From an uncultured Bdellovibrionales bacterium (lineage in GTDB: Bacteria > Patescibacteriota > Minisyncoccia > Moranbacterales > UBA1568): a stretch of DNA of 61,290 nucleotides. Under the pieces are notes generated by a model that worked only from the letters and a program-made list of their open reading frames with translations, was not told the DNA's origin and did no database searches. The stretch spans positions 1 to 61,290 of the forward strand of contig CAZUWR010000004.1 in NCBI GenBank assembly GCA_964624415.1, given 5' to 3'. The translations under genes and the position numbers were made by a program. Position 1 is the first letter of the stretch; each line of letters begins with the position of its first letter. Shown in pieces: positions 43,868 through 54,798 of the stretch.

Positions 43868-46129
43868 TTACACCTCGATCACGACCGGGAGCACCATCGG
43901 GCGCCTTTCGGTTTTGGTGAAGAGGAATTGTCCGACCACCTCGCGGATATTGTTTTCGATCGTGCGCCAATCGATAGAGGTGTCTTTGGACGTATTGTCC
44001 TTGACCACCTTGAGGACTTTACGCTTCGTCTCATTGACGAGGTCGAAGTTTTCCTTGACGTGGATGAAGCCGCGGGACGTGATCTGCACATTACCGAGCA
44101 CCTTCTTGGTCTTGTGATCCACAAGCACCGTGATGGCGATCATGCCGTCTTGCGACAGCATCTGTCGGTCGCGGAGCACCACATGCCCGATATCGCCGAT
44201 ACCCAGTCCATCCACGAAGACATAGCTGGTGTCGATTTTCTTGGGCAAGAGCTTGACGGATTGTCCGTCGTTCTCCAGGATATGCCCGTTGTCCATCACG
44301 AAGACCTTGTCTTTCGAATAGCCGTTCTTGTAGGCCAATTTCGCGGCTTCCTTGAGGAAGAAGTGATTACCGTACACCGGGATGAAATAGGTCGGCTTGA
44401 CCTGATGAAGCATCTCGATGATACCGCTCGCGGTACTGTGGCCGCCGATATGGATGTCCATGATATCGCTGTGGATGACATTTTCGCACTTACGGTAGAG
44501 ATTGTCCTTCAATCGCTGGACGCTACGCTCATTGCCCGGGATGACTGAAGATGAGAAGACGACCGTATCGGTACGCTGCAATTTAATGAAGCGATGATTG
44601 TCCGTCACCATACGAGACAGGGCCGCGTTCACTTCGCCCTGCGCACCCGTACAGATGACCACGACTTTATTATCGGGATACTTGTGGATATCGCTGGTTG
44701 GGATAAGTGTGTCTTGTTTGATCTTGATATAGCCGAGTTCTTTGGCAATCTCGACATTGTTTTTCATACTGTAGCCCTCAAGTGCCACTTTCTTGCCAAG
44801 CTGTTCAGCATATTCCAACAGATAGCTCACGCGACGCACTTGTGACGCGAAAGTCGCGATGATGAGTCGTCCGGGAGCTTGTTCCATCAATTGCTGGAAA
44901 TTCTTGTGCACCTGCGTCTCTGACGGTGGCAGGCCTTTCTTGACCGCTCCGAGGCTTTCAAGCATCAAAAAGGTCGGCTTTGGCAAAAGTGCCAGATGTT
45001 CATAGCTGAGCGGATGCGGATCGATTGGCTCATTGCTGATGGTCCAATCACCCATATGAATAACGGTTCCGACCGGTGTCTCCAACGTAATACCGATAGC
45101 ATCCATAATGGAGTGCTCGACTTCGAAGAACTTCACGGTAAAGATACCGAGCTTCATCACATCATCGAGCGTCTTAACGCGGATCATCTTGAGGCGCGCT
45201 GCCGCTCCCCGTTCCTGATCATCCACCTTGTGCTTGATAAGCGCGAGCGTAAAATCACGACCGATAATAGTCGGGTAATTGAGCTGTCGCAAAAGAATCG
45301 GTGCGGCTCCGATATGGTCGAGGTGTCCGTGCGTAAAGATAACGCCGCGGATCAGATGCTCCTTGCCTTTCAGGTAGCTTACATTCGGGACGATATAGTC
45401 GATACCTGGCATATCTTCCTCACCGAACTGCAATCCCATATCGATAATGACGATATCGTTACCGTATTCAAAGATGGTCATATTGCGACCCACTTCCTCT
45501 TGTCCTCCGACAGGAATGATGCGCAATTTATTCTTGCCACTACCCAAAGTCACAGGCTTTCGAGCTGGTATAATGCGAGGCGTCTGCCCTTCGGATACAA
45601 CAGGACGCGCCGGCCTTGGTGCTTGCGGCATACGCGGAGACGAAAATTTCTTATCCGGCTCAAATGAAAGCGCTGGAATTTCTTCACGCTTCGGTGCTGG
45701 TGTCTGTGCTATTTTCCCAACCGACTTAAGGCTCTGCACGATCGCTGCCGCACTTCGCACCGGCGCTACCGGAGCTGAGGCAGGAACGGTCGTTGTCAGA
45801 GGTCGCTCTGGAGTTTTTTCCTGAAAACGCCTTGGTTCGTTGCTTTTGAATGCAGGACGTCCTTGCACTGGCCGCGCTTGACGCTGGGCCGGTGCCGGAA
45901 CAAGAGGCGCCTTTTGAACCGATGGCGCTACCTGAGGCGCGACTCCGGTTCGCTTTGAAATGAGATTATCAAAAAACGCTTCGCTTGAATCTCTGTCACT
46001 ACCGTGTTGTGGTGCTACAGCACCTTCCTTTTTAAAGGGACGATTGCCGCTTTGCGGTGTATTGTTTCTACTAAACATATATTTTCTTCTTTTTCTCTCT
46101 TTATCCCAGGAAAAGGTATCGTACGCCAA
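43868..46129 (-). CDS. rnj: ribonuclease J with ~200-aa low-complexity N-terminal extension
   Basis: From residue ~201: LRIIPVGGQEEVGRNMTIFEYGNDIVIIDMG, VIFTHGHLDHIGA (metallo-beta-lactamase HxHxDH), then beta-CASP and the RNase J C-terminal domain. TTG start per the ORF track, preceded by GGGGAGG. Residues 1-200 are Pro/Ala/Gln/Arg-rich. Confidence 0.9.
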   Translation of the reverse strand: MAYDTFSWDKERKRRKYMFSRNNTPQSGNRPFKKEGAVAPQHGSDRDSSEAFFDNLISKRTGVAPQVAPSVQKAPLVPAPAQRQARPVQGRPAFKSNEPRRFQEKTPERPLTTTVPASAPVAPVRSAAAIVQSLKSVGKIAQTPAPKREEIPALSFEPDKKFSSPRMPQAPRPARPVVSEGQTPRIIPARKPVTLGSGKNKLRIIPVGGQEEVGRNMTIFEYGNDIVIIDMGLQFGEEDMPGIDYIVPNVSYLKGKEHLIRGVIFTHGHLDHIGAAPILLRQLNYPTIIGRDFTLALIKHKVDDQERGAAARLKMIRVKTLDDVMKLGIFTVKFFEVEHSIMDAIGITLETPVGTVIHMGDWTISNEPIDPHPLSYEHLALLPKPTFLMLESLGAVKKGLPPSETQVHKNFQQLMEQAPGRLIIATFASQVRRVSYLLEYAEQLGKKVALEGYSMKNNVEIAKELGYIKIKQDTLIPTSDIHKYPDNKVVVICTGAQGEVNAALSRMVTDNHRFIKLQRTDTVVFSSSVIPGNERSVQRLKDNLYRKCENVIHSDIMDIHIGGHSTASGIIEMLHQVKPTYFIPVYGNHFFLKEAAKLAYKNGYSKDKVFVMDNGHILENDGQSVKLLPKKIDTSYVFVDGLGIGDIGHVVLRDRQMLSQDGMIAITVLVDHKTKKVLGNVQITSRGFIHVKENFDLVNETKRKVLKVVKDNTSKDTSIDWRTIENNIREVVGQFLFTKTERRPMVLPVVIEV

Positions 46130-46320
46130 TGGCGACGACCTCCCCTTGAACAGAGAAATGTTTTTACTAAAAAATTATTACTGTCCGTTCTATTTGAAAG
46201 AACGAACGTGATTATCAAGTGAAATGTCAAAAATTCAAGAATATATTCTTTCTTCTTCAAAGATTGATCGACAACAAGAAAAGAGAACAGCTCTCTTGAG
46301 ACATATTTACACTGAGAAAG

Positions 46321-46367
46321 TGCCTTGAGGGAGACTCGAACTCCCATTCCCTTGCGGGATCCTTCTG
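46321..46367 (-). pseudogene. tRNA-derived 3' fragment (anticodon-stem 3' strand, long variable arm, T arm, acceptor 3' strand, discriminator A)
   Basis: Minus strand reads CAGAA-GGATCCCGCAAGGGAAT-GGGAG TTCGAGT CTCCC-TCAAGGC-A. It has a canonical T arm and a GNRA-capped variable arm typical of type-II tRNAs. No matching 5' acceptor strand lies within the adjacent 70 nt. Confidence 0.6.
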
Positions 46368-46393
46368 ATTTCTTTCTTTTTTGCAGATATCGG

Positions 46394-46477
46394 TGGGGAT
46401 AGAGAGACTCGAACTCTCACAGTATCGCTACCACTGGCACCTGAAGCCAGCGTGTCTACCAATTCCACCATATCCCC
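46394..46477 (-). tRNA. tRNA-Leu (anticodon CAG)
   Basis: Hand-folded cloverleaf:
- acceptor GGGGATA/TATCCCC
- D arm GTG-GAATTGGTAGA-CAC
- anticodon arm CTGGC-TTCAGGT-GCCAG (CAG)
- long variable arm
- T arm GAGAG-TTCGAGT-CTCTC
- discriminator A; CCA not encoded. Confidence 0.9.
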
Positions 46478-46667
46478 AATATACGCAGAAATCATCGGGA
46501 TGCGGATTACCTCTTCCGCTATTCAAGGCAAAATGCAACCAAAGCCACCAGACTGAACGGTTACATTATGCGATTGTGCTAAAGAAAACCAAGAAACTCT
46601 TTACATGAGTGTAGCATGCTCTGTGCAAAAAGTCAATGAAAAAACCGAATAAAGGCTAATAATAGCT

Positions 46668-48053
46668 CTATTTCCTGTTATACTGGTCGTCGTATCGGAC
46701 GATATCATCCTCCTCCAGATACGTCCCGGTCTGCACTTCGATAATCTCTAACACTTCCTTTCCTGGATTTTCCAGGCGATGCTTATGCGTCTTTGGCACA
46801 TAGGTACTCTCCGATTCGCTCAAAAAAGTCTCCGTTTCACCATTGACGATCTTGGCTGTCCCCTTCACCACCACCCAGTGCTCGGCACGGTGAAAGTGTG
46901 ATTGTAAGCTCAATTTCGCACCAGGATACACGATGATTTTTTTCACTTTATGTGTCGGGGTATCCAAGAGTATTTCATACCTCCCCCACGGACGGTATCC
47001 GATCAACTGCTGATCAACCTCTTTAGCCCCATCCGCTTTCAACTTCGCGACCACTTTTTTTACATCCTCGCTTCGGCCGCGTTTTTGAATCAAGATGCTA
47101 TCATTGTTTTCGATCACGATCAAATCCTCGACACCAAGTGTCGCCACCAAACGATTGCTCGTACTGTGCACGAAGACGTTCTTAGAATCGATCTCGATAT
47201 GGCGCGTCTCGATCGAATCGTTTTTCTCCGCGATTTCCGCCAAGCTGTCGAAGGATCCGATATCGTTCCAATCAAAACTCCCCTCAAAAACGACCACCTT
47301 ATCGGATTTTTCCGAAAGCGCATTATCAATAGAAAGCTCTGGAAGCGCCGTGAAGGTTTCAAGAAAATCTTCCAAAGGCTGTTCGACTGCCAACGTATAC
47401 TCCGGGGCATGCTTTTGCAATTCTTTGAAAAAGGTCTGCGCATTAAACAAATACATTCCCGAATTCCAAACATACTCGCCCGAAGCGATATACTGCTCTG
47501 CAGTTGTGTGATCCGGTTTTTCCTTAAACTCCGCTACCTGCGCATATCCCTTGTGCTTAGCGCCTTTCTTGATATATCCATACCCGGTTTCCGGTTTGGT
47601 AGCGACGATGCCGATCGTACCGATGGCATCTCCCACGCATTCACCTGCCTTTTCCAGCACTTCCGCAAAGGCTTCTTTATTACCGATATAGTGATCCGCC
47701 GGCAGAAAGACTACGGGCGTATCGAGTGATGCGCCGCCTTTCTCGATCAGGTGTTTCATAGCATAGAGAATCGCCGGGGCGGTATTGAGGCTGGCCGGCT
47801 CAATCAAGACACGACTCTGATCGAAGTGTTCGTCGATATCGCGTATCTGATTGATGACATTGAACAAATTCTGATCATTGGTCACGAAAAAAATATGCTT
47901 GCTGGGCACGACCTGTCGCACACGAAGGTAAGTTTCTTGCAATAAAGACTTATCACTGTACAGGCTAAGGAATTGCTTGGGAAAATTCTTACGAGAAAGC
48001 GGCCACAAACGCGTTCCGAATCCACCGCACAAAATGACAGCATACATAGGCAT
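46668..48053 (-). CDS. mannose-1-phosphate guanylyltransferase / mannose-6-phosphate isomerase (bifunctional type)
   Basis: MPMYAVILCGGFGTRLWPLSRKNFPKQFL nucleotidyltransferase N-terminus. C-terminal cupin RPWGRYEIL...LSLQSHFHRAEHWVVVKG. ORF track start 48158 trimmed to the Met just before the G-rich loop. Confidence 0.88.
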   Translation of the reverse strand: MPMYAVILCGGFGTRLWPLSRKNFPKQFLSLYSDKSLLQETYLRVRQVVPSKHIFFVTNDQNLFNVINQIRDIDEHFDQSRVLIEPASLNTAPAILYAMKHLIEKGGASLDTPVVFLPADHYIGNKEAFAEVLEKAGECVGDAIGTIGIVATKPETGYGYIKKGAKHKGYAQVAEFKEKPDHTTAEQYIASGEYVWNSGMYLFNAQTFFKELQKHAPEYTLAVEQPLEDFLETFTALPELSIDNALSEKSDKVVVFEGSFDWNDIGSFDSLAEIAEKNDSIETRHIEIDSKNVFVHSTSNRLVATLGVEDLIVIENNDSILIQKRGRSEDVKKVVAKLKADGAKEVDQQLIGYRPWGRYEILLDTPTHKVKKIIVYPGAKLSLQSHFHRAEHWVVVKGTAKIVNGETETFLSESESTYVPKTHKHRLENPGKEVLEIIEVQTGTYLEEDDIVRYDDQYNRK

Positions 48054-48200
48054 TGGTTTTACAAGAGTTATATTCACCATAGACAAACCTGTACACTCAA
48101 TGTATCCGAATGGAAGCCCCCTGTCAAACGAGCGCGACAGATTGGTGACTCTCTGCAAAATATGCTACAATGCGCGCATAAACCCTTCAATGAACACGCT

Positions 48201-53980: not shown

Positions 53981-54062
53981 ATACGAAGTGTCGCAAGGAT
54001 TTTTCATGACCACTTTGCGTAGTCGCTCTGGTCTTGAAAAATTTCTTGCGTACACTTCGTAT
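53981..54062 (+). other. ~82-nt three-tier hairpin between clpC and comF
   Basis: ATACGAAGTGT (53981-53991) / ACACTTCGTAT (54052-54062), then CGCAAG..TTTTTCA / TGAAAAA..CTTGCG, then GACCA / TGGTC. No U-tract follows. It ends 14 nt before the comF ATG. Confidence 0.5.
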
Positions 54063-54075
54063 ACGATCAATCGCT

Positions 54076-54798
54076 ATGCGAATGTTTACAAAAATACAAA
54101 CGTTCATTTTCGACACCCTCTTCCCTATCGAGTGCATCGGATGCGGCCGGTCGAAGACCTATCTGTGCGAAGTATGCCTTTCGATTCTTCCGATTCATAC
54201 GGATCAAAGATGCCCCGTCTGCACCAAACGTGATACTATGCACGGCCAGGTCTGTTTCGATTGTCTCGGACAAACATCGCTCGATGGTCTTTTGGTTGCA
54301 TCATCATACAAAAATCCGCTTCTTTCCAAAGCTATTCATCTCTACAAATACCGTTTCATACAACCATTGAGTCATCCGCTCGGGCAGCTCCTCGTGCAAT
54401 CCGTCACGCATTCGGAAATACCACTCCCGGATATGCTCTGTCCCGTCCCACTCCATCCCCTACGTCTTCGGTGGCGCGGCTTCAATCAATCCTATCTCCT
54501 TGCCCAAGCACTCAGCACCGCGCTCATCCCGCAACTCCCTATCCCGCTTACGAAGAGACTTTCGCGTACACGCTTCACATTGCCTCAAATGAGCATTCGC
54601 GATGCCGACGAACGGAAGAATAATATCCGCGATGCTTTTGCCTGGAAACCTTCCACTTCCGATACAGCAGACATTCAAGGAAAATATATCTGGCTCATCG
54701 ACGATGTCGCCACCACCACCTCCACCCTCGATGAGTGCGCCAAAATCCTCAAAAAAAACGGCGCCAAGAAAGTCTTTGGCGTCGTCTTGGCACGATAA
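54076..54798 (+). CDS. comF: ComF-family protein (ComFC-like phosphoribosyltransferase)
   Basis: N-terminal Cys pairs (CIGCG..CEVC, CPVC..CFDC) and a C-terminal PRTase motif YIWLIDDVATTTSTL. Trimmed from the TTG at 54034 to the ATG at 54076. Confidence 0.8.
   Translation: MRMFTKIQTFIFDTLFPIECIGCGRSKTYLCEVCLSILPIHTDQRCPVCTKRDTMHGQVCFDCLGQTSLDGLLVASSYKNPLLSKAIHLYKYRFIQPLSHPLGQLLVQSVTHSEIPLPDMLCPVPLHPLRLRWRGFNQSYLLAQALSTALIPQLPIPLTKRLSRTRFTLPQMSIRDADERKNNIRDAFAWKPSTSDTADIQGKYIWLIDDVATTTSTLDECAKILKKNGAKKVFGVVLAR

Follow-up and report, generated by a model that had tools for sequence, protein, structure and literature searches.

A working tRNA-Leu(CAG) gene is nested within an older, resident tRNA-Leu(CAG) gene on a chromosome of Moraniibacteria (Patescibacteria). 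In the window, by which we mean the whole 61,290-nucleotide stretch of DNA that was analysed, positions 46529-46501 and 46359-46321 of the minus strand make up the two ends of one class II tRNA, and these bracket an intact tRNA-Leu(CAG) at 46477-46394 (Table 1). We propose, with a probability of about 0.7, that an acquired tRNA cassette of ~140 bp replaced the anticodon arm of the resident gene, that the inner tRNA is released, and that the outer halves cannot decode. Replacement of this kind, with one tRNA inside another, recurs in related bacteria, and we found no bacterial case of one tRNA gene nested in another described in the literature.

Table 1. Features of the nested tRNA locus, listed 5' to 3' along the minus strand (positions are those of the window)
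Feature	Position	Strand	Sequence	Remarks
Promoter-like site	46608..46636	minus	TTGACT-17 nt-TACACT	With TG extension; from consensus scan; putative use as promoter
Leader, promoter to outer 5' end	46530..46607	minus		51% identical to L001 leader
Outer acceptor 5' strand	46523..46529	minus	GCCTTGA	7/7 identical to L001; exact complement of 46328-46322
Outer D-arm region	46501..46522	minus	ATA-GCGG-AAGAGGTAAT-CCGC-A	ATA 46522-46520, GCGG 46519-46516, AAGAGGTAAT 46515-46506, CCGC 46505-46502; altered relative to L001 (TG-GCGG-AATTGGTATA-CGC-G)
Closing helix 5' strand	46487..46500	minus	TCC-CGA-TGATTTCT	In place of the anticodon stem; minimum-energy fold
5' linker	46478..46486	minus	GCGTATATT	Unpaired in fold
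Inner tRNA-Leu(CAG), intact, 'GGGGATA' type	46394..46477	minus		Rfam tRNA, 56.9 bits; ARAGORN 46477-46392
3' linker	46374..46393	minus	CC-GATATCTGCAAAAAAGAA	Unpaired in fold
Closing helix 3' strand	46360..46373	minus	AGAAATCA-GAA-GGA	Pairs with 46500-46487 in minimum-energy fold
Outer variable arm	46346..46359	minus	TCCCGCAAGGGAAT	Homologous to L001 TCTCGAAAGGGATT, 3 differences (11/14 identical); folds as hairpin
Outer T arm	46329..46345	minus	GGGAG-TTCGAGT-CTCCC	
Outer acceptor 3' strand	46322..46328	minus	TCAAGGC	
Outer discriminator	46321	minus	A	

Results

An earlier note, made from the sequence alone, had offered three origins for the bracketing pieces: a type II tRNA gene disrupted by insertion of tRNA-Leu, an intervening sequence, or a pseudogene remnant plus coincidence. 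The coordinates and sequences that it gave for the tRNA pieces were all verified on the minus strand, and alignment with related genomes, a check that it had suggested, supported the first of these origins. L001, the closest relative found (RNase J 92% identical), shares the gene order ManC-tRNA-RNase J with the window, and carries at this syntenic site a single, uninterrupted, ancestor-like tRNA-Leu(CAG) with the same acceptor stem and T arm. All 25 positions of the outer T arm, acceptor 3' strand, and discriminator (46321..46345) are identical to this gene, and the trailer just past the outer 3' end is 46% identical. Because the fragments match the syntenic L001 tRNA exactly over these 25 positions and in the acceptor 5' strand (7/7), they represent the resident gene of the window. 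The idea of a remnant plus coincidence fails, since both halves match this single orthologous gene.

That the arrangement is an artefact, through mis-assembly of the tRNA-Leu genes of two strains or through an unrelated 3' remnant lying near a complementary 7-mer, is hardly credible. The window does come from a metagenome-assembled genome, and depth spikes at 46418-46491, where the tRNA words are common to many organisms of the same samples. However, both junctions recur in contigs assembled independently, and the depths agree: in run X1, from a wastewater sample, two contigs built separately (depths 24.6 and 25.4) contain one junction each with no differences from the window. The 5' junction was also found without differences in single contigs from X2 (another study) and X3 (the study of X1). 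A switch between strains at a common word would have joined two tRNAs into a hybrid and would not have produced nesting with unique linkers. The match of both halves to one orthologous gene and the presence of the same architecture, with other sequences, in many assemblies also argue against an artefact.

We scrutinized the surroundings of the nested gene. A Pfam scan of 16 large ORFs between 36 and 57 kb matched the families ManC, RNase J, YchF, phosphoglucomutase, Clp ATPase, G6PD, and malic enzyme, all of which are housekeeping families, and 5 of the 16 ORFs had no family match. No recombinase or transposase family was among these matches, and the scan revealed no mobile-element gene within 10 kb on either side of the nested tRNA. 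An exact-protein look-up with the RNase J of the window gave no match. At related loci, tRNA-Leu(CAG) is located upstream of RNase J where flanking sequence is present, and ARAGORN called exactly one tRNA-Leu(CAG) in 72 of 80 related RNase J loci. The inner tRNA-Leu(CAG) would thus replace an essential, apparently single-copy gene. The promoter-like site upstream of the outer 5' half is the presumed promoter of the entire nested unit, judging from its resemblance to the consensus. Its −35 and extended −10 elements are kept in L001 (TTGACT ... TGCTATACT) amid non-coding DNA that is ~50% identical, and the consensus scan detected no promoter-like site between the outer 5' half and the inner tRNA.

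The inner gene has its discriminator A at 46394 and does not encode CCA. Its acceptor, anticodon, and T stems and its variable arm all depart from those of the outer and L001 gene. The tRNA-Leu(CAG) genes of L013, L024, L066-68, and L076 match it at 95-98% identity, although RNase J in these genomes is only 71-76% identical. Among genomes with RNase J of 71-76% identity, genes of the inner type are 95-99% identical, whereas ordinary tRNA-Leu(CAG) pairs there average 78-82%. Because the inner type is also present in distantly related Moraniibacteria, these comparisons suggest that it was most likely acquired horizontally. A duplication in place, by which the resident gene would have been copied into itself with no contribution from another lineage, is very improbable in view of the differences between the inner and outer genes and the near identity of the inner gene to those of distant lineages. 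In L100 and L050, the inner and outer genes have nearly the same D arm, variable arm, and anticodon stem, and most of their differences lie in the acceptor stem (in L100 the T stem differs too), as would suit such a duplication. Gene conversion between adjacent direct copies can, however, account for this likeness. A phage origin of the inner tRNA was rejected: its T arm and acceptor gave 9 matches in a scan of viral contigs, all of which were other tRNAs with different bodies.

In the predicted structure, the 209-nt unit forms two nested cloverleaves (−84.4 kcal/mol, z = −5.4; none of 200 shuffles was as good). When the inner tRNA and both linkers were replaced by GAAA, the outer halves by themselves folded into a full class II cloverleaf (−45.2 kcal/mol, z = −5.7). 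Across the insert, pairing is best between TGATTTCT (46494-46487) and AGAAATCA (46373-46366), and the helix continues across a 3x3 internal loop with TCC (46500-46498) paired to GGA (46362-46360). This longer register supersedes the pairing of TTCTG with CAGAA (46367-46363 on the minus strand) that had been put forward before. The motif TCTGC does occur on both sides of tRNA-Leu, as had been pointed out (46489-46485 and 46387-46383), but a shared 5-mer within ~100 nt is at chance level; both copies lie inside the linkers and do not abut the helix ends. Taken alone, the perfect 8-nt complement between leader and trailer is only moderately unusual: it is tied for second place in a set of 71 related loci, which typically have 5-6 nt. 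Across lineages, 8 of 12 pairs of the closing helix changed on both sides, and 92% of cells were paired compared with 63% in shuffles, in an alignment that was built by hand from strands chosen because they pair.

The tRNA-in-tRNA arrangement recurs in scattered lineages of Moraniibacteria and in metagenome contigs, with nests of Leu(CAG), Leu(GAG), Leu(TAG), and Pro(CGG). The same nested architecture was found in L033, L100, L118, L113, L024, L027, and L050, and a second family of nests, in which the interruption lies in the D loop, was represented by L092, L115, L121, L124, and L109. The identity of the replacing gene is always that of the interrupted gene. Closing helices of different nests are often related. 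L033 has a helix of different sequence at the same position as the window, and the helices of L118, L100, L113, and L024 close the insert at other positions of the outer tRNA. Those of L033, L118, L024, and the Pro nest of L100 are longer (11-14 bp), and the L118 junction contains a 3x7 internal loop. In L033, L100, and L118, where the 5' stump is long enough to judge, the outer cloverleaf is undamaged outside the insertion site. Decaying remnants were found in L013, where the T arm and acceptor are broken, in L092, which has mismatches in its stems, in L018, which has lost the 3' half, and in L005, which has an internal deletion; genes of the 'GGG' type stand alone, with no remnants, in L012, L041, and L066-68.

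On a neighbour-joining tree of a single protein, RNase J, the nested loci of the window, L013/L024, L033, and L050 are scattered, each with relatives bearing an intact 'GCC'-type gene. L017 and L018 have flanks that are 93-95% identical and tRNA-Leu alleles that are different, and L018 retains a 5' stump of the L017-type gene. Genomes with RNase J more than 90% identical can have tRNA-Leu(CAG) genes that are just 67% identical.

The outer RNA of the window lacks an anticodon stem-loop: the helix and the inner gene stand in place of positions 27-43, and joining 46501 to 46359 yields no anticodon arm. Without this arm the outer halves are unable to decode, and they are best explained as a disrupted resident gene on its way out. 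The outer gene was called neither by Rfam nor by ARAGORN in standard mode or in the relaxed and intron-permitting modes that the earlier note had recommended; the inner tRNA was the sole ARAGORN call. It is most unlikely that the helix and inner tRNA are intron-like, with the outer halves forming a joined or split tRNA and one locus giving two working tRNAs. Such a reading would suit L115, L121, and L124 of the D-loop family as well as L113, in which the outer gene retains complete anticodon, variable, and T arms and a paired acceptor stem. It would also suit L100 and L118, in which positions 35 and 36 of the anticodon loop flank the insert, and the tRNA-Pro nest of L100, which likewise has its insert inside the anticodon loop. 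In the window, however, it fails on anatomy; here and in L033, no decoding outer tRNA is possible because there is no anticodon stem-loop. Rfam revealed no group I or other intron family, and on these grounds the intervening sequence suggested earlier is unlikely. Moreover, the intron mode of ARAGORN found nothing for the outer gene, and cleavage by RNase P and RNase Z would be expected to leave linkers that need trimming. We know of no tRNA splicing endonuclease in bacteria.

With L001 as the reference, the outer acceptor/T-arm helix shows 0/32 changes and the D region ~7/27 by hand count (Fisher p = 0.003), and the D region still folds into a 5-bp hairpin with GG retained in its loop. Even decay would be expected of a neutral remnant, so this pattern points either to a very recent insertion that brought the D region with it or to selection on the helix. 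By the latter account, the locus would encode a functional composite RNA, with selection maintaining an outer shell made up of the acceptor/T-arm helix, the D hairpin, the variable arm, and the closing helix. Such a shell might offer the inner tRNA a platform for processing or insulation. Alternatively, it might be a tRNA-like molecule in its own right, for instance a decoy or a substrate of LeuRS, the CCA-adding enzyme, RNase P, or RNase Z. The unchanged acceptor/T-arm helix, set against ~50% identity of the neighbouring non-coding DNA, agrees with such a role, as do the D-region changes, which keep and lengthen the hairpin, and the compensatory changes in the closing helix. In the window and in L033, the helix takes the place of positions 27-43 exactly and so preserves the cloverleaf geometry. 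The D-loop family has linkers that are conserved even between contigs with unalignable flanks, and no helix flanks the genes of the inner type that stand alone. These three observations also favour a function. Nevertheless, we consider a selected shell unlikely. Remnants are decaying or lost in the four loci listed above (L013, L092, L018, and L005) and absent at many stand-alone 'GGG'-type genes, the conservation relative to L001 would also follow if the insertion were recent and the gene had been functional up to that point, and the covariation comes from a hand-selected alignment.

If, as we propose, an acquired cassette replaced the resident anticodon arm, the insert comprises a whole tRNA-Leu(CAG) gene of another sequence type, a short linker on either side of it, and the closing helix. 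The nested unit would be transcribed as a single precursor from the resident promoter. Folding predicts that the inner tRNA then sits atop an elongated 'anticodon arm' of a tRNA-like shell. By analogy with established tRNA processing, cleavage by RNase P and RNase Z (or trimming by exonucleases) and the subsequent addition of CCA would yield a free inner tRNA, which would take over decoding. The outer halves may remain annealed, and their intact acceptor/T-arm helix may possibly still be cut by RNase P and RNase Z. RNA runs matched the nested locus in generic tRNA words alone. One metatranscriptome contig (X26) covers the inner 5' part, the linker, and the 5' strand of the helix with 3 differences but diverges at its other end.

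Discussion

The genes for tRNAs are among the most stable in bacteria. Contrary to this stability, an essential, apparently single-copy tRNA-Leu(CAG) appears to have undergone repeated, independent replacement from within across a candidate-phylum lineage. The constant match in identity between replacing and interrupted genes, and the frequent presence of a helix with related ends, likewise run against it. A dedicated mechanism, should there be one, would give translation components a new route between genomes and would be a bacterial counterpart of the disrupted tRNA genes of archaea. Since tRNA finders report the inner gene alone, nests are invisible in current annotation, and they could mislead methods that mark the borders of genomic islands by tRNA fragments.

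Several known systems resemble the nested locus in part. Integrases have target sites in tRNA genes. Disruption of a tRNA gene by integrating mobile elements has been modelled for tRNA-Thr of Caldiarchaeum subterraneum (PMC3293823). As in such disruption, an old tRNA fragment adjoins an intact gene of the same identity, the locus varies within the population or clade, and a mobile event is deduced. Integrating elements, however, lie between fragment and gene as kb-scale, recombinase-coding elements and supply the matching part of the tRNA, whereas the window has ~140 bp with a whole, different tRNA gene and no recombinase nearby, and both old halves remain. A remnant of an integrase attachment site was considered and rejected. 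That model does not predict the orphan 5' half, and the orphan 3' part, which begins (46359) 34 nt beyond the inner discriminator (46394), is not a direct repeat of the inner 3' end (GGGAG..CTCCC-TCAAGGC versus GAGAG..CTCTC-TATCCCC). An island with an integrase was also rejected; the neighbours are housekeeping genes, and no integrase was among the families matched in the large ORFs scanned across 36-57 kb.

Group I introns occur in anticodon loops of bacterial tRNAs, for example in cyanobacterial tRNA-Leu(UAA). Like these introns, the insert lies in the anticodon region of a bacterial tRNA-Leu gene and is patchy among relatives. Unlike them, it carries a tRNA, which makes up 84 of its ~140 nt, and the 'exons' of the window form no anticodon arm. 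No group I core was found: Rfam at the gathering score matched the tRNA family alone, and with E-values up to 10 the region 45900-46900 gave far-sub-threshold chance matches and no intron family. There was no tmRNA call by ARAGORN, nor any Rfam match with an E-value up to 10 to tmRNA or another catalogued tRNA-like RNA.

The multiple-intron, split, and permuted tRNA genes of archaea and algae (PMC4390854, PMC3978253, PMC4033280) are likewise interrupted at loop positions and have helices that bring the pieces together. They need a bulge-helix-bulge motif, a splicing endonuclease, and a ligase, and yield one functional tRNA, whereas the window is from a bacterium and the interrupting sequence is itself the functional tRNA. 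Inspection of the junctions revealed no bulge-helix-bulge (3-nt bulge, 4-bp helix, 3-nt bulge); the predicted order is 3 bp, 3x3 loop, and 8 bp.

Correia elements of Neisseria and the palindromic elements of Rickettsia are small inverted-repeat elements, non-autonomous and transcribed together with host genes. Like the insert, they are short and non-coding, and their inverted repeats pair as a helix in the RNA; in the insert, terminal inverted repeats of 8 bp (perfect) plus 3 bp flank the inner gene. Both kinds of element are multi-copy, and Correia elements make a target duplication. Unlike these, the insert shows no target-site duplication, with no direct repeat abutting the helix ends, and the 61-kb window contains no second copy of either linker or helix strand and no CCTGC...GCAGG palindrome. 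To our knowledge, neither kind of element carries a tRNA gene. Polycistronic tRNA precursors are processed by RNase P and RNase Z, and the inner tRNA is similarly expected to be cut from a longer transcript by ordinary enzymes; unlike in those precursors, its flanks are the two halves of an enclosing tRNA-like fold, not spacers or other tRNAs.

We tentatively raise the possibility that the nests belong to an undescribed, small, non-coding mobile cassette of Patescibacteria, in which a complete tRNA gene within a helix-forming inverted repeat enters a loop of a resident tRNA gene of matching identity (Leu-CAG, Leu-GAG, Leu-TAG, or Pro-CGG) and replaces it. As the function of the interrupted gene would be taken over, such a cassette would rescue its own insertion, and its activity would drive rapid turnover of tRNA alleles between lineages. 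In a stronger variant, the enclosing tRNA-like shell would also stay a functional RNA. Hairpins with the same helix ends, CCCCGCACC...GGTGCGGGG, and no tRNA were found in related loci and contigs. Viral contigs contained no nested tRNAs, only tandem tRNA arrays, and a scan of them for CCCCGCACC...GGTGCGGGG gave 45 matches, about the number estimated for chance. Among these matches was a separate family of hairpins with CCTCCTT/AAGGAGG arms and no tRNA cargo.

Anatomy and predicted fold of the nested locus

To the minus strand of the window at 46321-46529 belongs a complete tRNA-Leu(CAG) gene, which lies between the two ends of a second, class II tRNA. Re-reading of this strand located all elements listed in the earlier note at the positions given there, and ARAGORN and Rfam call the inner tRNA alone at the locus. 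The pairing of TTCTG with CAGAA suggested across the insert gives way to a better register, TGATTTCT with AGAAATCA, and the TCTGC repeat on either side of tRNA-Leu is present at no more than chance level.

Features of the nested locus and its flanking genes
Feature	Position	Strand	Sequence or basis
ManC-type mannose-1-phosphate guanylyltransferase (flanking gene)	46668-48158	minus	
Outer 5′ half	from 46529	minus	GCCTTGA-ATA-GCGG-AAGAGGTAAT-CCGC-A
Closing helix 5′ strand and 5′ linker		minus	TCC-CGA-TGATTTCT-GCGTATATT
Inner tRNA-Leu(CAG)	46477-46394	minus	ARAGORN and Rfam
3′ linker and closing helix 3′ strand		minus	CC-GATATCTGCAAAAAAGAA-AGAAATCA-GAA-GGA
Outer 3′ half	to 46321	minus	TCCCGCAAGGGAAT-GGGAG-TTCGAGT-CTCCC-TCAAGGC-A
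RNase J (flanking gene)	43868-46129	minus	

The public sequencing run X1 contained 100% of the words of the locus stretch. Two independently built X1 contigs, 45900-46422 and 46396-47000, showed no differences and had equal depths (24.6 and 25.4), so that each junction lies inside one contig. The 5′ junction was crossed without differences by single 151-nt contigs of X2, from another study, and X3, from the study of X1. A strain switch at a shared word was considered and rejected, as it would give a hybrid tRNA and not a nested pair with unique linkers.

The predicted fold of the 215-nt stretch consists of two nested cloverleaves (-84.4 kcal/mol, z = -5.4). The outer one has an acceptor stem of 7-8 bp, a D hairpin, a variable arm and a T arm, and at its anticodon position a long arm of 3 bp, a 3x3 internal loop and 8 bp carries the inner tRNA at the tip. 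With the inner tRNA and both linkers swapped for GAAA, the outer sequence folded into a clean class II cloverleaf (-45.2 kcal/mol, z = -5.7), and none of the shuffles of this outer-only sequence folded as well. The perfect 8-nt leader/trailer complement of the window ranked joint second among 71 loci.

The outer halves match a resident tRNA-Leu(CAG) gene

RNase J relatives placed the window in Candidatus Moraniibacteriota (Patescibacteria), with the closest RNase J locus, L001, at 92% amino-acid identity. In related loci tRNA-Leu(CAG) lies upstream of RNase J wherever flank sequence was available, and ARAGORN found exactly one such gene in 72 of 80 related RNase J loci. L001 has the ManC-tRNA-RNase J order and promoter hexamers (TTGACT ... 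TGCTAYACT) of the window, and a single intact tRNA-Leu(CAG), GCCTTGA-TG-GCGGAATTGGTATACGC-G-CTCGC-TTCAGGT-GCGAG-TTCTCGAAAGGGATT-GGGAG-TTCGAGT-CTCCC-TCAAGGC-A. Compared with this gene, the outer halves show no change in the 5′ acceptor strand (7/7 identical) or across the T arm, 3′ acceptor strand and discriminator (25/25), are similar in the variable arm (11/14), and differ at about 7 of 27 D-region positions by hand count; the whole anticodon arm is absent. Because the fragments match the intact L001 gene at the same ManC-RNase J position, sequence comparison indicates that the outer halves are the resident tRNA-Leu(CAG) gene, split.

Among the explanations offered in the earlier note, disruption of a tRNA gene by insertion of tRNA-Leu is supported by the L001 match of both halves, and the uninterrupted gene found in this relative favours it. 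The intervening-sequence option, an intron-like reading, fails for the window on anatomy because the outer RNA has no anticodon arm; it is conceivable for L113 and the D-loop family described below, in which the outer anticodon arm is intact.

Ahead of its metallo-beta-lactamase domain, the flanking RNase J has an N-terminal extension (45530-46078, minus strand) some 180 residues long and rich in proline, alanine and basic residues; Pfam domains begin near ORF residue 215.

The inner gene and allele turnover

The inner gene is a canonical tRNA-Leu(CAG) of another sequence type, with acceptor strands GGGGATA/TATCCCC and T stem GAGAG/CTCTC. Copies in the window and in the related loci L013, L024, L066-68 and L076 share 95-99% identity, against only 71-76% for their RNase J proteins; ordinary tRNA-Leu(CAG) pairs at that RNase J identity average 78-82%. 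On a neighbour-joining tree built from one protein, RNase J, the nested loci (window, L013/L024, L033, L050) were scattered, each with close relatives carrying an intact 'GCC'-type gene (classed by the start of the acceptor stem), and stand-alone 'GGG'-type genes made up two further groups. Acceptor-stem types were interspersed on the tree across the set. Some genomes have RNase J more than 90% identical yet tRNA-Leu(CAG) as low as 67% identical. Between L017 (2338-2422) and L018 (2217-2380), flanking DNA is 93-95% identical and the tRNA-Leu(CAG) alleles only about 74%, and a 5′ stump of the L017-type gene persists in L018. Allele replacement at the tRNA-Leu(CAG) locus is common. The view that an acquired tRNA-Leu(CAG) gene has here taken the place of the resident one from inside it is supported.

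Recurrence of nesting in other loci

Genomes and metagenomes were scanned for nests in a single pass, with patterns biased toward Leu-type T arms.

Loci with nested genes of differing sequence
Locus	Outer gene	Site of insert	Closing helix
L033	GCCCTGG type, D arm intact	in place of positions 27-43, like window	12 bp, TCCCTCACTTGG/CCAAGTGAGGGA
L118, L100	GCCTTGG type	anticodon loop, between 35 and 36	at least 12 bp
L113	tRNA-Leu(GAG)	between the D and anticodon arms	12 bp, with a single bulge
L024	CTAGGGC as 3′ acceptor strand; contig start truncates the 5′ end	D-arm region	11 bp
L027	'GCC' type	after position 26	none evident
L050	'GCC' type	anticodon loop	none evident

In a second family, on metagenome contigs (L092, L115, L121, L124, and L109 for Leu(TAG)), the insert breaks the D loop, and its flanks lengthen the inner acceptor stem. 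Roles are swapped in L113, where the broken gene is of the GGGGATA type and the replacing gene of the GGGCATG type. On the reverse strand of L100 (693-898; plus-strand 1928-2133), a tRNA-Pro(CGG) lies within the anticodon loop of a tRNA-Pro-like shell with acceptor CGGAGCG/CGCTCCG. A helix of 14 perfect base pairs, CCCCGTCACCAAAA/TTTTGGTGACGGGG, closes this nest. It is related to the helix of the Leu nest that lies about 100 nt upstream on the contig, and the two have almost identical 3′ strands.

The closing helices of six loci have a (T/C)CCC...GGG(A/G) base in common, and the window helix shares with this family only TCC/GGA. In an alignment built by hand from strands picked because they pair, 8 of 12 pairs showed changes in both strands; 92% of cells were paired versus 63% in shuffles. 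Hairpins with CCCCGCACC...GGTGCGGGG ends and no tRNA were found elsewhere in L007 and L024. The locus in the window is one instance of nesting that recurs in Patescibacteria.

The literature searched gave no description of tRNA-in-tRNA nesting in bacteria. Among the nearest cases are group I introns that interrupt the anticodon loop of bacterial tRNAs, and small inverted-repeat elements co-transcribed with host genes. So are tRNA gene disruption by integrating elements in archaea (PMC3293823) and the archaeal and algal tRNA genes that are disrupted, split or permuted (PMC4390854, PMC3978253, PMC4033280). Unlike here, the interrupting sequence in each of these is not a complete tRNA gene of the same identity. 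The rRNA genes of CPR bacteria are known to be rich in introns (cited in PMC10714607).

Predicted expression and fate of the outer halves

Beyond the observed anatomy, predicted fold, outer-half orthology and scattered distribution, established tRNA biology suggests how the locus would be expressed. A single precursor would be transcribed from 46636-46608, the site of a conserved putative promoter; nothing resembling a promoter was found in the stretch that separates the inner gene from the outer 5′ half. RNase P would cut 5′ of 46477, RNase Z or exonucleases would trim after 46394, and CCA, which the gene lacks, would then be added. The outer halves, which are unable to decode, may remain annealed through 7 + 3 + 8 base pairs and, because their acceptor/T-arm helix is intact, are plausible RNase P and RNase Z substrates.

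Against L001, this helix has 0 of 32 nt changed versus about 7 of 27 in the D region (Fisher p = 0.003, D count by hand), while identity is 51% in the leader and 46% in the trailer. This pattern is at odds with a simple remnant: it points either to a very recent insertion that brought an altered D region along, or to selection on the outer helix. That selection keeps the outer RNA as an enclosing tRNA-like shell seems unlikely to us, for all that the unchanged helix speaks for it, as do D-region changes that preserve and lengthen the hairpin and, in the window and L033, a closing helix substituting exactly positions 27-43 with cloverleaf geometry kept. Outer remnants are decaying or lost in L013, L092, L018 and L005 and absent around stand-alone 'GGG' genes, which fits a resident gene on its way out.

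The RNA runs searched for the nested unit gave no supporting evidence. A 188-nt contig of the metatranscriptome X26 covers window 46431-46512 with 3 differences, spanning the 5′ part of the inner tRNA, the 5′ linker and the closing-helix 5′ strand; the variable arm and T arm that follow are different ones. Either another strain has a variant nest or this contig is chimeric.

Several relatives have a degenerate tRNA-like element downstream of tRNA-Leu(CAG), with a T arm and an acceptor-like 3′ end (L013:290-372, L024:275-362, L027:2354-2428, L031:1145-1235, L043:2360-2420, L046:60-130, L056:2265-2335). Uncalled by ARAGORN in these relatives and with no counterpart in the window, it may represent an older remnant, or else a tRNA-like RNA of its own.

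Possible routes of insertion

Within about 10 kb, the large ORFs scanned gave no recombinase or transposase match, and five of them matched no family. Neither a target duplication at the insert nor a second copy of the insert within the window was found, and viral-contig scans gave no sign of phage carriage of the nested tRNA. That nesting recurs, that the cargo matches the identity of the interrupted gene and that helix ends are related is compatible both with a small non-autonomous cassette moved by a trans-acting factor and with spread by recombination via conserved tRNA arms, although the 5′ arm of the D-loop family, only about 17 nt, is short for homologous recombination. A protein with a double zinc ribbon and a phosphoribosyltransferase domain, a pair typical of ComF-type competence proteins, is encoded at 54034-54798 (plus strand); it may matter should DNA uptake be a route by which tRNA alleles spread.

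Inside the D loop (flanked by GGAATT and GGTAGAC) or the T loop of broken tRNA copies, and also near other tRNA genes, there is a small palindrome, CCTGCCGGCAGGCAGG or a longer form, CCTGCCCGC...GCAGGCGGG: L018:2217-2290, L027:2177-2250, L113:5690-5760, L056:2349-2364, about 70 nt upstream of 2188 in L050, and the T loop of the outer tRNA-Pro of L100. The palindrome is absent from the window. In L013:150-200 and L024:170-225, a 41-nt hairpin (CCCCAGTAGTAGAAATGTTTTACATTTCACTACGGGG then CAGG) occupies the anticodon loop of the outer tRNA remnant, nearly identical between the two loci, with strongly different adjoining linkers.

Long hairpins without tRNA cargo, with CCCC(C/G)(A/C)CACC...GGTG(T/C)GGG(A/G) ends of the type closing several nests, lie downstream of RNase J, at about 1.5 kb in L007 (6201-6269) and about 100 nt in L024 (3059-3180). 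Large viral contigs (L129, L135, L137, L147, L149, L153 and others) carry a separate family of tRNA-free hairpins of 104-130 nt, with perfect arms of 12-21 bp, CCCCGCACCCC(C)TCCTT...AAGGAGGGG(G)GTGCGGGG.
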